The notes beneath the pieces are model-generated. The model worked only from the letters and a program-made list of their open reading frames with translations. It searched no databases and was not told where the DNA came from. A program made the position numbers and the translations under genes. From Christensenella sp. UBA6345 (GTDB lineage: Bacteria; Bacillota; Clostridia; Christensenellales; UBA1242), in assembly GCA_002437945.1 (NCBI GenBank), contig DJSB01000033.1, positions 16,796 through 80,795 of the forward strand: a DNA stretch of 64,000 nucleotides. The letters run 5' to 3'. Below, one piece after another: positions 2,629-57,378 of this stretch (position 1 is the first letter of the stretch; each line of letters opens with the position of its first letter).

Positions 2629-3546
2629 TTATTCTTTTGTGATCTTTTTAGTTGTAGGCTTTTTAGCAGTAGTTTTCTTTGCAGTTTTAGGTTTTTCTTC
2701 AACCTTTTCTTCTGCTTTTTCTTCAACCACTTCTTCTTTTGGCTCTGCTTCAACTTCTGTGTTTTCTTTTACTTCTTCTACTTTAGGTTCAGTTGTTTCT
2801 ACAACTTTTTCTGTAGATTCAGTTGTTTCAGCATTTACAGTTTTTTCAGTTTTTAATTGATAATCACTATAATCTACTTTACTTACTACTTCTTCATAGA
2901 ACATACAGTTAGCAGAATAGAAATACATAGTAATAATTGCAAATAATATAATAACTGCAAGAACTAATACAATAGTTAATACAACACCTAAAGCAAGATG
3001 TGATGCATATAGTCCACTAATAAATAATGCACATATTGCAGCAACTGCAGCAACTAAAACATAGAACAAATAGAATACAACTTTATATGCAAATAATGCA
3101 GTCTTGTTACCATTCATCTGTCTAGCAGTAACATTAAGTGTATCAGTAACATTACTGATTCTCTCTTCGTTAAGTACAAATAAACTCATTGAATAATAAC
3201 CAATCATTAACACGCCCGGAACAATGAACAATACTAATCCTAGTAATGTACCTACCGCCATAATGATACCTAGCATAATTGCAGGGAAATATTCTGGTTG
3301 AACGAAAAGAACTTTAAAACTTGGATTATTACCCTTTAATGTTTGTTGCATAAAGTTAAGATAACCTAATGTTAAATAGCCAAATAATGCAACTGAAATT
3401 GCCCAACCAGCATAAGGAATCAAACAGAATAAAACTAGTGGTGCAATATAAATTAATGAAGCAAGGAATACTCTTCCCCATGCACCTTTTAATTTTGATG
3501 CTGAAATCCTAATTAGGTCAAGCCCATTTTTGCTTTGATTTTCCAT
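2629..3546 (-). CDS. DUF975-like integral membrane protein with an acidic/lysine-rich C-terminal tail
   Basis: The N-terminus (ENQSKNGLDLIRISASKLKGAWGRVFLASLIYIAP) and multi-TM layout resemble DUF975 family proteins. The C-terminal ~80 aa are an E/K/T/V low-complexity tail. The start is set at ATG 3546, behind a GGGGG RBS. Confidence 0.55.
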   Translation of the reverse strand: MENQSKNGLDLIRISASKLKGAWGRVFLASLIYIAPLVLFCLIPYAGWAISVALFGYLTLGYLNFMQQTLKGNNPSFKVLFVQPEYFPAIMLGIIMAVGTLLGLVLFIVPGVLMIGYYSMSLFVLNEERISNVTDTLNVTARQMNGNKTALFAYKVVFYLFYVLVAAVAAICALFISGLYASHLALGVVLTIVLVLAVIILFAIITMYFYSANCMFYEEVVSKVDYSDYQLKTEKTVNAETTESTEKVVETTEPKVEEVKENTEVEAEPKEEVVEEKAEEKVEEKPKTAKKTTAKKPTTKKITKE

Positions 3547-53607: not shown

Positions 53608-53824
53608 TAAAAATCCTCCTTTAAACTTTTCGTGTTTGTTTTATAAAAACTTTATTTTTTCGACTAATATGTCGAATAATGTGTGAGGATTTAAAAAAAC
53701 TCTTTCGCCACATAGAGTAAACGAAAGAGTTTTGAATATACATATAAAAAACTATTTGTTTACCTCGGCAAGATTTACTTTATACTTGCTGTCTTTGGCA
53801 AGACTTCTTTTAAAAACCGATAGT
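53608..53824 (-). promoter_or_regulatory. rplJ 5' leader with an internal intrinsic terminator (L10-leader-type attenuator)
   Basis: The leader contains a CUUGCcaaagacaGCAAG hairpin. It also has a strong stem, AAACTCTTTCG...CGAAAGAGTTT plus T7, at 53693-53733, upstream of the RBS. Firmicutes L10 leaders are known to act by attenuation. Assignment to the Rfam L10 leader has not been verified. Confidence 0.55.
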
Positions 53825-53853: not shown

Positions 53854-53931
53854 CAATTATTTTCTAAAAATTGCCTAAATAATTTACCAATATAATATAT
53901 TATGTTACACTTAACTATAGGAAGTTTAATT

Positions 53932-54597
53932 ATGGTTAAAAGGGTTATAGCAGGATTATTTATTTTAATATGTTCAGTCGCTTTAACGTGTGGTTGTGAT
54001 GACAACAAAAACAAAAAACAACTCGCATCAATTGATGATTCTGTGGGTAATTTAACCATTTTTTCTTTAACACAATCTAATAAAGATACTCTGCCCTTGC
54101 TATTGAATCTAGGACATAGTTTCATAACTATAGAGAACACTTCTTCCGATAATATGACAATAGGCAACTACGAACTTACACCTAATGAAACTATATGTAT
54201 AGGAACATGGAGTATATCCAATCATTTTGGTGTATGGTACAATGTAGAGTCCAATTATAATAGCAAATATAATCGTTATGATGGTAGAATCTCACTTACA
54301 AAAGAAATCTCTAGTAATGACATAACCACTATTACTACCTTTATTGCAAAACATAACTACTGGAATCCATTTAGAAATTGTTCATATTTTGCATTAAATC
54401 TGTGGAATTCAGTGGCAGATAGCAATGAAAAACTTAAAAAACCAATTATTTACTCTCCTACCCATGTTACACAAGAAATTAAAAAGTTTAACAATTATGA
54501 ATATAACAGACCGCTGCCTACAAATAGCAATATGGGATATTATTCTAACGCAAAATTTGTAAGTTTTAATATGAAAGGAGAAGATAAGTATGTTTAG
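53932..54597 (+). CDS. Putative lipoprotein with a permuted papain-like (His-first, NC..F) motif pair
   Basis: Signal peptide MVKRVIAGLFILICSVALTCGC. It has LGHSFITIEN and a later YWNPFRNCSYFALNLWN, arranged as in PPPDE/LRAT-type permuted NlpC/P60 enzymes. The start is set at ATG 53932 (AGGAA RBS). Confidence 0.45.
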   Translation: MVKRVIAGLFILICSVALTCGCDDNKNKKQLASIDDSVGNLTIFSLTQSNKDTLPLLLNLGHSFITIENTSSDNMTIGNYELTPNETICIGTWSISNHFGVWYNVESNYNSKYNRYDGRISLTKEISSNDITTITTFIAKHNYWNPFRNCSYFALNLWNSVADSNEKLKKPIIYSPTHVTQEIKKFNNYEYNRPLPTNSNMGYYSNAKFVSFNMKGEDKYV

Positions 54598-54820
54598 AAA
54601 AATAACATTTATAATTCTCTTAATTATTGACATATACCTTATTTATAGTGCAATAGGTTATGCTATTATGGGCAATAATTGTCCAGAAATAGTTGGTGAA
54701 CAAAAATCAATATTTATGGGTAATTATATTATGAGTATAATATTTGGGAGTATAGGAATAATGCTCACAATTGTACTTATAATTTTGGGAATAAAAACGT
54801 ATAAAAAGAAAAAACAATAG
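54590..54820 (+). CDS. Small two-TM membrane protein (76 aa), translationally coupled to the preceding gene
   Basis: Its start overlaps the upstream stop by 8 nt. It has two hydrophobic helices and a KKKKQ tail. Confidence 0.55.
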   Translation: MFRKITFIILLIIDIYLIYSAIGYAIMGNNCPEIVGEQKSIFMGNYIMSIIFGSIGIMLTIVLIILGIKTYKKKKQ

Positions 54821-54848
54821 ATGGTCGTATAACCATCTATTATTTTTT
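54817..54848 (+). terminator. Terminator of the 53932-54820 gene pair
   Basis: ATAGATGGT cgtata ACCATCTAT followed by a T-run. Confidence 0.8.
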
Positions 54849-55004
54849 ATGATTTATTATTAATCAAATACATTATTACGAATAAAAATATATGGTAAAT
54901 CACTAATATATAGCAATTTAAGCCCCAAATTGGCCATATAACGTCATATTTAACTTTAATCTATAACTTATATTAGTAAAACATATAATGACGTAAAATA
55001 ACCC

Positions 55005-55159
55005 TAATTTTTAGATGCAATCACTCGGAAACAAGCACAACGTTAGTTGTATTTGTGTAGAAGTGATTAGCATCGCAATTTACGTGATTTCGTGCTTACA
55101 CTTAAGCACGTTGTCCAAATCCCTTTGGACAACAAAAAAAAGAGCATACTGCTCTTTTT
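55005..55159 (+). ncRNA. Candidate structured sRNA, tandem copy 1 (P1-P4 plus intrinsic terminator)
   Basis: P1 pairs 55014-55025 with 55062-55074. P2 is a hairpin at 55031-55056, P3 at 55091-55110 and P4 at 55111-55132. The terminator is AGAGCAtacTGCTCT plus T5, ending at 55159. Confidence 0.55.
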
Positions 55160-55220
55160 ATATACTTTACTACTCGTACAGGCTTACATAATATTGGCTT
55201 ATTATATCAACCGCGACCAT

Positions 55221-55374
55221 TAATTTAGATGCAATCACTTGGAAACAAGCACAACGCTAGTTGTATTTGTGTAGAAGTGATTAGCATCGCAATTTACGTG
55301 ATTTTGTGCTTACACTTAAGCACGTTGTCCAAACACCTTTGGACAACAAAAAAAGAGCAATATGCTCTTTTTTT
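55221..55374 (+). ncRNA. Candidate structured sRNA, tandem copy 2
   Basis: Same architecture as copy 1. All substitutions fall in loops or junctions, or convert C-G to U-G, which is valid only for a + strand RNA. Its terminator doubles as the rplA terminator on the minus strand. Confidence 0.55.
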
Positions 55375-55386
55375 AAATCACGTAAA

Positions 55387-56070
55387 TTACATTACCTTAT
55401 AATCAACTTTGATTCCAGGTCCCATAGTAGAACTTACTGAAACTGACTTGATATATTGACCTTTAGCGGCTTGTGGTTTAGCCTTAACGATGGCGTCCAT
55501 AAGTGTGTTAAAGTTTTCAAGTAATTTTTGAGTACCAAAACTCTTTTTACCAATCATAACGTGTACAATGTTAGACTTATCTAGTCTATATTCAACTTTA
55601 CCAGCCTTAACATCAGCAATAGCCTTTGTTACGTCTGTAGTTACTGTACCACTCTTTGGGTTAGGCATTAAGCCCTTTGGTCCTAAAACTTTTGCTATTC
55701 TACCAATAACTGGCATCATATCTGGAGTTGTGATACATACGTCAAAATCCAACCAACCTTGTTGAATTTTAGCGATCATTTCTTCTGCTCCAACATAGTC
55801 TGCACCTGCTTTAGTAGCAGCATCTGCATGGTCACCTTTAGCGATAACCAATACTTTAACACTTCTACCAGTACCGTTAGGAAGAACAACTGTTCCTCTA
55901 ACTTGTTGGTCTGCGTTACGTCCATCAACACCAAGTTTGATGTGAAGTTCAACGGTTTCGTCAAACTTTGCGCTTGCTGTTTTTTCACACAAATCTAATG
56001 CTTCTTGTGGAGTATATAGAGTTGTACGATTAACAAGTTTAGCACTTTCTAAATATCTTTTACCTTTCAT
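55387..56070 (-). CDS. rplA: 50S ribosomal protein L1
   Basis: [27 protein letters not shown]...[14 protein letters not shown]. Confidence 0.95.
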
Positions 56071-56584: not shown

Positions 56585-56632
56585 TGTGGTTATTAACAAA
56601 ACGCATAACAAAAATTTACGTTTCTCCCACTA
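56585..56632 (-). promoter_or_regulatory. L1-binding-site-like leader element upstream of rplK
   Basis: The minus strand reads uaGUGGGAGAaacguaaauuuuuguuaugcguuuuguuaauaaCCACa, with an internal AACG...CGUU hairpin. Confidence 0.4.
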
Positions 56633-56670
56633 TATTTTAAATAAGTAATTAACTTATAAAAAATCAAAAA

Positions 56671-57378
56671 TTAATCAACTAATTTTTTAACTTGGTCTAG
56701 TCCCAAATCAACTGGGGTTTCTCTACCAAACATTTCTACGATAACACGACACTTATTGGCTTGATTATCAATACCTACTACAGTACCAACAAAGCCGTTA
56801 AGTGGTCCATCTAGAACTTCTACCTTATCATTCTCACGTAGGTCTGTATTAACCATAACAACTTTTTCAAGATGCATTTTTAATGTCTCTTCATCAGTTA
56901 ATGGTAATGGACGACCTTTTGGTCCAACGAAACCAGTAATACCCCTTGTACGGGTAACTGCATGCCATATATCATCGCCATATATCATCTTAACATATAC
57001 ATAGCCTGGCATTAGTCTTCTAGATACAACTTTACGTTTACCATTTTTTTCTTCAACAACATCTTCCATAGGGATAACAATGTCAAAGATACGTTCCTGT
57101 AAATTGTATTTATCAATAACAATTTCCAAGTTTTCTTTGGCTACGTTTTCATAGCCAGAGAATGTGTGCAAAACATACCATTTTGCTTCTTTTCTAGCAT
57201 TTTCAATTCTAATCTGTTCTTCAGAAAGTTCTTGTGGTTGGGTTGGGTTGTTTGTTAATTGTGTATCAGAATCTACAGTATTAGATTCTTCAACTGGCAT
57301 AGTGTCTGGAGTATTTTCAACTTCCATAGTTTCTACATTTTCAGTATCAACTTCGGTTAAGTCTTTTTCGTCTTCCAT
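56671..57378 (-). CDS. nusG: Transcription termination/antitermination factor NusG with a ~60-aa acidic N-terminal extension
   Basis: KWYVLHTFSGYENVAKENLE NGN domain and a KOW domain (GFVGTVVGIDNQANKCRVIVEMFGRETPV). Confidence 0.9.
   Translation of the reverse strand: MEDEKDLTEVDTENVETMEVENTPDTMPVEESNTVDSDTQLTNNPTQPQELSEEQIRIENARKEAKWYVLHTFSGYENVAKENLEIVIDKYNLQERIFDIVIPMEDVVEEKNGKRKVVSRRLMPGYVYVKMIYGDDIWHAVTRTRGITGFVGPKGRPLPLTDEETLKMHLEKVVMVNTDLRENDKVEVLDGPLNGFVGTVVGIDNQANKCRVIVEMFGRETPVDLGLDQVKKLVD

Follow-up and report, generated by a model that had tools for sequence, protein, structure and literature searches.

The stretch analysed here, 64,000 nucleotides (nt) of Christensenella sp. UBA6345 (contig DJSB01000033.1; "the window" below), carries on its minus strand the gene series rpmG, secE, nusG, rplK and rplA. 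Next to the rplA stop codon, on the opposite strand, lie two direct repeats, a distal copy (copy 1) and an rplA-proximal copy at 55222-55374. As the first-pass annotation of this DNA had stated, no co-directional gene follows them, the next gene being the convergent rplA, which encodes ribosomal protein L1; the same holds in every other lineage in which we found the repeats, which argues against a 5' leader or riboswitch. The repeats are genuine and strongly structured, and they belong to an RNA family that has not been described before, is very narrowly distributed and is physically tied to the 3' end of rplA. On balance, and with moderate confidence, we take them to represent a new clade-specific family of structured small RNA (sRNA) genes on the plus strand, locally coupled to the rplA 3' end as cis-antisense RNA and insulator.

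The tandem arrangement is real: the copies are 93% identical overall (pairwise alignment of 54995-55165 with 55211-55381) and 96% identical over a core of 131 nt (55010-55140 and 55224-55354) repeated with a period of 214 nt. Differences between them are confined to loops, junctions, homopolymer runs and one base pair, and comprise a junction base (C/T), the P2 loop (GUUA/GCUA), the closing pair of P3 (C-G/U-G), the P4 loop (UCCC/CACC), an A-run of 8 versus 7, the terminator loop and a 2-nt indel in the 5' tail; all of these had been listed before, and inside the RNA there are no others. Both copies adopt a common fold in which P1, a 13-base-pair (bp) long-range helix with one bulged A, encloses the 10-bp hairpin P2 and is followed by a linker, the hairpins P3 and P4, and a hairpin T between an A-tract and a U-tract (Table 1). 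Minimum free energies are -55.6 kcal/mol for the distal and -59.3 kcal/mol for the proximal copy (z = -7.8 and -8.6), none of 200 shuffled sequences folded as well as either copy, and the repeat region contains five terminator-like sites where 0.7 are expected. The fold is thus essentially the one described at first pass, and it recurs in 28 distinct copies from six lineages.

Table 1. Coordinates of the repeat elements and of rplA in the window
Feature	Position	Strand	Basis or remark
TATAAT, -10-like	54984-54989	+	24 nt before distal P1; read from sequence; possible promoter element
Distal copy	55006-55159	+	fold, repeat match, covariance-model score of 113.9 bits; 5' end AAUUU(UU)A
Distal P1	55014-55026 with 55061-55074	+
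Distal P2	55031-55056	+
Distal X	55077-55090	+	same linker sequence as proximal X
Distal P3	55091-55110	+
Distal P4	55111-55132	+
Distal A8, hairpin T and U5	55134-55159	+
TATTAT, -10-like	55200-55205	+	22 nt before proximal P1; read from sequence
AAUUUA	55222-55227	+	immediately 5' of P1; invariant in 19/19 proximal copies
Proximal 5' domain	55228-55288	+	P1 55228-55240 with 55275-55288 (bulged A); P2 55245-55270
X, linker AAUUUACGUGAUUU	55291-55304	+	5' strand of the X:X' closing helix
P3 hairpin	55305-55324	+	fold and covariation
P4 hairpin	55325-55346	+	fold and covariation; loop inverted in some strains
T, A7-GAGCA AUA UGCUC-U7	55348-55374	either	bidirectional intrinsic-terminator-like hairpin
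X', AAAUCACGUAAAUU	55375-55388	+	3' strand of the closing helix
rplA (ribosomal protein L1)	55387-56070	-	open reading frame list; Pfam Ribosomal_L1 on the identical protein in L001-L008

When GTDB species representatives were scanned with the L1 protein, the window species fell among uncultured Clostridia, whose metagenome-assembled genomes are labelled Clostridia, Christensenella or Catabacter. An identical L1 is encoded on many gut-metagenome contigs of the window species (lineage a), which carry one or two RNA copies, and L1 homologues with 91-97% identity led to five more RNA-bearing lineages: b (L1 protein P0002, loci L103-L107), c (P0004, L009 and L090-L095), d (P0011, L096-L100), e (P0018, L108-L109) and f (P0012, L110-L111). 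In all six of these closely related lineages the RNA is present in one to three tandem copies, which are always convergent with rplA and touch it. A covariance model of the family (R1) found no member in the rplA loci of 79 other species, nor in L101, L113 and L114-L117.

A search of the window with two 28-29-mers, allowing up to three mismatches, returned just the two known copies; the conserved P2 core pattern was found on one JGI metagenome contig, which belongs to the window species, and on no viral contig; and BLAST against plasmids and phages gave merely a 35-nt terminator-like match. A dispersed repeat, comparable to repetitive extragenic palindromes or miniature inverted-repeat transposable elements, was rejected because every copy recovered in these searches and in the rplA loci adjoins rplA. 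The repeats were not matched by any Rfam 15 family when the whole window was scanned at gathering thresholds (the sole match was an L10 leader, and no tRNA was among the matches), a permissive scan of 54800-55420 yielded only terminator-like candidates with at most 21.6 bits and E values of 0.3 or above, and no described equivalent of these RNAs was found in literature searches. The earlier label of an sRNA class that could not be named was therefore fair.

Copies within a species are more alike than counterparts in sister species, and 5'-truncated, decayed and collapsed remnants occur in L100, L110 and L108 and upstream in all lineage-b loci, a pattern that fits unequal crossing-over and gene conversion within the arrays. 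In lineages d, e and f, two older types of the 5' domain (GAAACAAGCGACAC... and UAGAYAAGCAAUGC...) have been differentially retained. Among the remnants themselves, lineage b (L103-L107) shows a collapsed unit, AAUUUA-GCAAU-A-run-T, about 200 nt upstream of where the full copies begin; in lineage e a degenerate copy (L108, around 3400-3470) still contains an X-like AAAUUUACGGUUUUUUG; and the 5'-truncated copies of lineages d (L100, 2654-2770) and f (L110, around 3400-3500) are reduced to X-P3-P4-T.

Covariation between these lineages is strong. In alignments that were model-guided and hence fitted to the model, the 19 distinct proximal copies have standard pairs in 87.7% of cells and changes on both sides in 38 of 65 pairs, with a covariation score of 0.427 compared to 0.055-0.117 when the partners were slid by one to three columns. 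For P1-P4 in all 28 distinct copies, 89.3% of cells are paired, 28 of 39 pairs are compensatory, and the score is 0.553 versus at most 0.147 in the slid controls. The two-sided changes in the proximal copies are spread over P1 (8/12 pairs), P2 (5/10), P3 (7/8) and P4 (8/9), and independent RNAfold predictions gave the identical two-domain architecture for all 19 proximal copies and thus for every lineage. Lineages a and c have nearly no sequence in common in the stems of P1, P3, P4 and T, and all helices are retained; the relatives thus bear out the fold proposed from the window. Sequence conservation is concentrated in the AAUUUA before P1, the GCAAUUU after P1, the A-tract and lower P2, which reads ACAAG/UUUGU in the window (consensus A-[C/U]-A-A-G / U-U-U-[G/A]-U) and includes a G.U pair at alignment columns 29/47 that is invariant in 19/19 proximal and 28/28 of all copies. 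This G.U, the bulged A and a 1x1 internal loop remain constant in all copies while the stems around them covary.

Covariation could also arise by mutation if the 3' domain were a cluster of DNA palindromes between convergent transcription units, without RNA function, in which replication template-switching, known as quasi-palindrome correction, and unequal crossing-over preserve perfect palindromes. X:X' (a closing helix described below), P3, P4 and T are indeed perfect Watson-Crick palindromes without bulges, copy number varies between one and three with truncated and collapsed remnants, and presence is patchy among near relatives. In addition, the P4 loop is found as its own reverse complement in two lineages, as CACC/GGUG in lineage a (window 55334-55337 versus the proximal copy of L001) and as UGUG/CACA in lineage b (L103 copies). 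Such inverted loops are a signature of template-switching and indicate that this process does occur at hairpins of the locus. A purely mutational origin does not account for the 5' domain, where the G.U, the bulged A and the 1x1 loop are imperfections kept in 28 copies whose stems covary. Nor does it account for an architecture conserved in lineages with little stem sequence in common, or for X' having the same exact place in every lineage, between T and the stop codon of rplA. We therefore give this explanation only a small chance of being correct. Template-switching could nevertheless mimic covariation in the 3' domain, and this caveat weakens the conclusions drawn for that domain, not those for the imperfect 5' domain.

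The linker X is 14 nt long and 100% complementary to 55375-55388, a segment which we term X' and whose complementarity had escaped the first-pass annotation. X' begins directly after the second U-tract and ends within the rplA stop codon; on the minus strand it corresponds to the last two bases of this codon together with the rplA 3' untranslated region (UTR). Pairing of X with X' would enclose P3, P4 and T and create a four-way junction in which nearly all junction bases are paired. Across the lineages X exists in four sequence versions, each of which fits its own X' (ACGUGAUUU/AAAUCACGU, AUGCGAUUA/UAAUCGCAU, UGGGGUUU/AAACCCCA and ACGGGUUUU/AAAACCCGU); next to the version of lineage a (Table 1), lineage b has X AAUUUAUGCGAUUA and X' UAAUCGCAUAAAUU, lineage c has AAUUUUGGGGUUU and AAACCCCAAAAUU, and lineages d, e and f share AAUUUACGGGUUUUU and AAAAACCCGUAAAUU. 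Over the 19 proximal copies the helix is 97% paired with five pairs compensatory across lineages, and RNAfold assigns it a pairing probability of 0.61-0.97. When X and X' were exchanged between lineages, the mean number of pairs dropped from 13.55 of 14 to 10.68, with a maximum of 12. The ~155-nt unit ending at T that was proposed initially is thus correct with respect to its fold, but given X' it is probably not the whole structure of the proximal copy.

Variants within lineages show which property of X is maintained. Two independent A-to-G changes, in L089 and L110, each yield a G.U pair in X:X', and the variant GUUAGUUAUUGGGGUUU of L009 and L090 has lost identity with the rplA 3' UTR while keeping 14 pairs by means of a shifted register, a bulged A and a G.U. 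This indicates that complementarity on the plus strand is retained rather than identity with the rplA 3' UTR, and for the same reason mimicry of this UTR by X is disfavoured. As a separate observation, the AAUUUA hexamer occurs on both sides of the P1-P2 domain in nearly all copies (55222-55227 and 55291-55296 in the window, UAAUUUA-[P1...P1]-GC-AAUUUA); it could be a duplication that arose when the 5' domain was inserted, could offer the 3' half of X' another segment to pair with, or could be a chance product of AT-rich sequence.

The linker (GCAAUUUACGUGAUUU) had been put forward as a free seed for pairing in trans, and this suggestion is not supported: X is the fastest-evolving and most variable segment of the RNA between lineages, and it covaries with a partner in cis beyond the terminator, which argues against a conserved free seed. 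The wider idea behind it, that the repeats encode ~150-nt sibling sRNAs acting on distant mRNAs through the linker, with the match to X' being incidental or only one target of several, deserves consideration because the architecture is typical of such RNAs (a structured 5' domain, a single-stranded stretch, hairpins and an intrinsic terminator), and because the copies are tandem paralogues of variable number. Well-known sibling sRNAs are LhrC1-5 of Listeria, PrrF1/2 of Pseudomonas and OmrA/B of E. coli, in which the conserved part is the single-stranded seed. Like them, the repeats are paralogues of 100-170 nt that lie in tandem and have one terminator hairpin each, and their copy number and loops vary between strains while the stems are preserved, but they show no homology to them in sequence or structure (no Rfam match), and here the would-be seed evolves fast and covaries with a partner behind its own terminator. 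Each change in X is matched in X', whereas seeds are usually the best-conserved part of an sRNA. A search of the window for targets of X with up to two mismatches gave seven matches compared to 2.8 expected, none of them convincing and none a good complement apart from X', and besides AAUUUA, GC and the A-tract there is no other conserved single-stranded motif that might serve as a seed. Pairing with the rplK leader, through a 9-nt match (ACGUAAAUU), was rejected: the matching segment belongs to a conserved L1-type hairpin which is also present in species without the RNA, and it covaries with its own stem and not with X. The retention of X in distal copies, which have no X' 3' of T, speaks for trans action and against the local role that we favour. 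All in all we consider regulation of distant targets unlikely.

The second feature overlooked at first pass is that T is bidirectional. In the proximal copy T has seven A on one side and seven U on the other and is located 12 nt from the rplA stop codon, which indicates that on the minus strand it is also the terminator of rplA; its distal twin (55137-55159) is called as a terminator on both strands as well. The A-tract is invariant (7-8 A), such that T has U7-8 in the direction of rplA in all cases, whereas the U-tract on the RNA strand varies between four and nine. As a plus-strand terminator T is fair in lineages a, b, d and f (U6-9) and weaker in c (U4) and e (U5).

Because T serves both strands, the functional RNA might be the minus strand, that is, a structured 3' extension of rplA whose read-through transcripts would fold as X-T-P4'-P3'-X' and then meet the distal terminators; its role would be to shield the oppositely oriented neighbours and to stabilise the 3' end of the rplA mRNA. 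In agreement with this, the element is always attached to rplA, its 3' domain folds equally well on either strand, the A-tract is invariant even in distal copies, whose T hairpins are better terminators in the rplA direction, L100 retains only X-P3-P4-T-X', and in lineage d the distal X has an A.C mismatch on the plus strand that is a G.U pair on the minus strand. On the other hand, T followed by U7-8 should be a strong rplA terminator, so that transcripts of the partner strand would be rare, three wobble events in X:X' yield valid pairs on the plus strand only, the conserved G.U, bulge and internal loop of the 5' domain have no obvious use in an insulator, and each unit is preceded by a -10-like box on the plus strand. 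A functional minus strand therefore seems rather unlikely to us.

The first-pass annotation had argued for the plus strand from the closing pair of P3, which changes from C-G to U-G and remains a pair on this strand only. The conserved structured elements on which that view was built are confirmed, whereas the strand argument itself is weaker than the numbers suggest at first sight: the alignment contains 34 G.U versus 3 A.C cells in P1, P2, X, P3 and P4, but according to our reading of the variants these collapse to about six independent events versus two. The plus strand is slightly more stable in 14 of the 19 copies, in both domains, and the differences in folding energy of 1.6 kcal/mol (5' domain) and 0.7 kcal/mol (3' domain) in its favour are only weakly informative. 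Taken together with the features of the 5' domain, we are fairly confident that the functional strand is the plus strand.

If the RNA is made at all, it would need a promoter of its own. The RNA has a divergent gene upstream of it in L001, L004 and L089 of the window species and in L111, and therefore it cannot be the 3' UTR of another transcript. A -10-like box is located 16-24 nt upstream of P1 in each unit (Table 1), and in L004 a promoter-like TATACA-16-TATTAT (9/12) on the RNA strand, about 17 nt before P1, includes the homologue of the box at 55200.

Several observations weigh against a plus-strand RNA gene acting at rplA. A promoter scan of the window gave no full -35/-10 match and a recognisable -35 was found for neither copy; promoters as well as 3' ends and the long isoform proposed below are predictions from sequence. 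The limited strand signal, the template-switching at the 3' domain, the X of distal copies and the absence of the RNA from close relatives such as L117, whose L1 is 97% identical to that of lineage e, belong here too. In distal copies the A-tract, read as a U-tract in the direction of rplA, has been kept better than the RNA strand's own U-tract, which hints at selection for termination of rplA transcripts. Moreover, since T is a reasonable plus-strand terminator in most lineages, X' may be transcribed only rarely.

With these reservations, the following picture can be drawn. Each repeat would be a gene for a structured sRNA, transcribed from the plus strand towards rplA. Its 5' domain would form the long P1/P2 hairpin with the conserved lower P2, the invariant G.U, the bulged A and purine-rich internal loops, and binding of a protein is the most likely role that we would predict for it. 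The 3' domain would consist of P3, P4 and T, which in the proximal copy could be closed by X:X' into a four-way junction. Transcription that stops at T would yield a form of about 150 nt with X exposed, whereas read-through of at least 14 nt past T, with which the short U-tract on the plus strand (4-9 U) would be in keeping, would yield a closed form of about 170 nt with a base-paired 3' end. The closed form would mask, within itself, the sequence antisense to the stop codon and 3' UTR of rplA. The overlap that a cis-antisense RNA implies is present in the sequence, as T is common to both transcription units and X' covers the rplA 3' UTR plus 2 nt of the stop codon. The module would thus act locally, as cis-antisense RNA and insulator at the 3' end of the rplKA operon, and not as a trans-acting sRNA with multiple targets.

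A more specific possibility, to which we assign a low probability, is an RNA switch based on the state of termination, in which the choice between stopping at T and 14 nt of read-through sets the form of the RNA, and the ratio of the two forms reports convergent traffic on rplKA. Stopping would expose 14 nt of single strand, and running on would lock the four-way junction and hide the antisense of the rplA stop codon; the 5' domain could titrate a partner, possibly L1 or another protein related to the ribosome. RNA bound by L1 is a short hairpin whose internal bulge has a G-A pair and, after this pair, an unpaired A (PMC3616713). The purine-rich loops at the P1/P2 junction of the repeats are GGAA/GUAG in the window and a single G/A in lineage c, so their form is not conserved, and having a hairpin with purines in an internal loop is too generic a likeness to an L1 site to carry weight. 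Like the L10 leader (RF00557), which does not match the repeats, and the L1 site at rplK (PMC3616713), the repeats are structured RNAs linked to the rplKA-rplJL cluster; in contrast to these 5' leaders on the gene strand, they lie 3' of rplA on the opposite strand.

Parallels to the local action that we favour are cis-antisense RNAs convergent with translation genes, such as SR7/S1136 opposite rpsD in B. subtilis (PMC7834092), and SraG, which is located between rpsO and pnp in E. coli (PMC5029454). In these cases, too, an sRNA gene on the opposite strand lies on the 3' side of a ribosomal protein gene and overlaps the end of its transcript, and a local effect is expected. Organism, sequence and fold are different, the RNAs described here occur in tandem copies and are known from sequence alone, and the overlap comprises just the terminator and 14 nt, which are paired within the RNA itself.

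Convergent transcripts that share one bidirectional intrinsic terminator, with a second short repeat outside of it, are also found in the par (Fst/RNA II) type I toxin-antitoxin loci (PMC7472228, PMC8167048), and the window contains plus-strand open reading frames (ORFs) of 57-58 codons (55015-55191 and 55229-55402) that would encode peptides with a hydrophobic core. A toxin or another small protein is scarcely credible all the same, although the convergent layout and shared terminator recall par (PMC7472228). The ORF has its start inside P1, with no ribosome-binding site, and continues across the terminator; it is missing from the closest lineage, b, where the longest frame from a start codon has at most 19 codons; and no frame is conserved across lineages, indels between the copies shifting it. 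This reading is thus effectively refuted by the lack of a conserved ORF. Unlike in par, the partner gene here is rplA, and the extra repeat is inverted, such that the two RNAs have identical rather than complementary sequence there and the complement lies within the plus-strand RNA. An inverted repeat such as X/X' could also suggest a retron, but next to it there are ribosomal genes and genes for three small proteins that have no Pfam match, and no reverse transcriptase.

The RNA copies are part of a ~1.8-kb insert on the plus strand which separates rplA from the L10 leader, beyond which rplJ and rplL follow; besides the two copies it contains a 231-amino-acid (aa) ORF, a 76-aa membrane ORF and a strong terminator at 54809-54848. 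The two genes (53902-54820) interrupt the rplKA and rplJL clusters, which are contiguous in most genomes. The 231-aa protein has an N-terminal hydrophobic, Cys-containing, signal-like segment and belongs to no Pfam family, and the 76-aa protein is a two-helix membrane protein with an ATP-synt_C-like Pfam match below threshold. This two-gene insert is present in every RNA-bearing lineage and in L011 and L117, which lack the RNA, and is missing in L101, L113 and L114. In some strains of the window species, not including the window strain, an extra 150-aa gene without Pfam match (L001 5186-5638, L004 4975-5427, L089 1565-2017), divergent from the RNA, separates the array from the 76-aa gene; in lineage f (L111) a different divergent gene occupies its position.

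The L10 leader RF00557 (64.7 bits) is located upstream of rplJ at 53684-53816 on the minus strand. Upstream of rplK, at about 56590-56635 (minus strand), there is a conserved hairpin, GUGG-GAGAA-[ACGUAA...UUAUGCGU]-UUUGUUAAUAA-CCAC, whose inner stem covaries across species (ACG/CGU, GCG/CGC, GUG/CAC, AUG/CAU); it looks like an autoregulatory site bound by L1 and is absent from the Rfam scan output. NusG (56671-57378, minus strand; 235 aa) carries an acidic N-terminal extension of about 60 residues, the length of which differs among related lineages (called proteins of 179-244 aa).

If real, the repeats add a well-supported structured RNA family, each helix of which covaries, to a poorly known branch of uncultured gut Clostridia; their narrow distribution and the absence of a cultured host limit what they may mean in practice. 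They also call for caution in sRNA target prediction, as the best partner of an apparent seed is found in cis. Should the switch described above prove true, it would amount to feedback of a new kind, exerted at the 3' end of a ribosomal protein operon. The arrangement itself is unusual: an essential ribosomal protein gene and a convergent RNA gene share a hairpin, and an additional conserved helix extends over this hairpin as far as the stop codon. This raises the idea that intrinsic terminators may be parts of larger functional RNA folds, and that read-through and termination may give rise to two forms of an RNA that differ in the sequence they expose.

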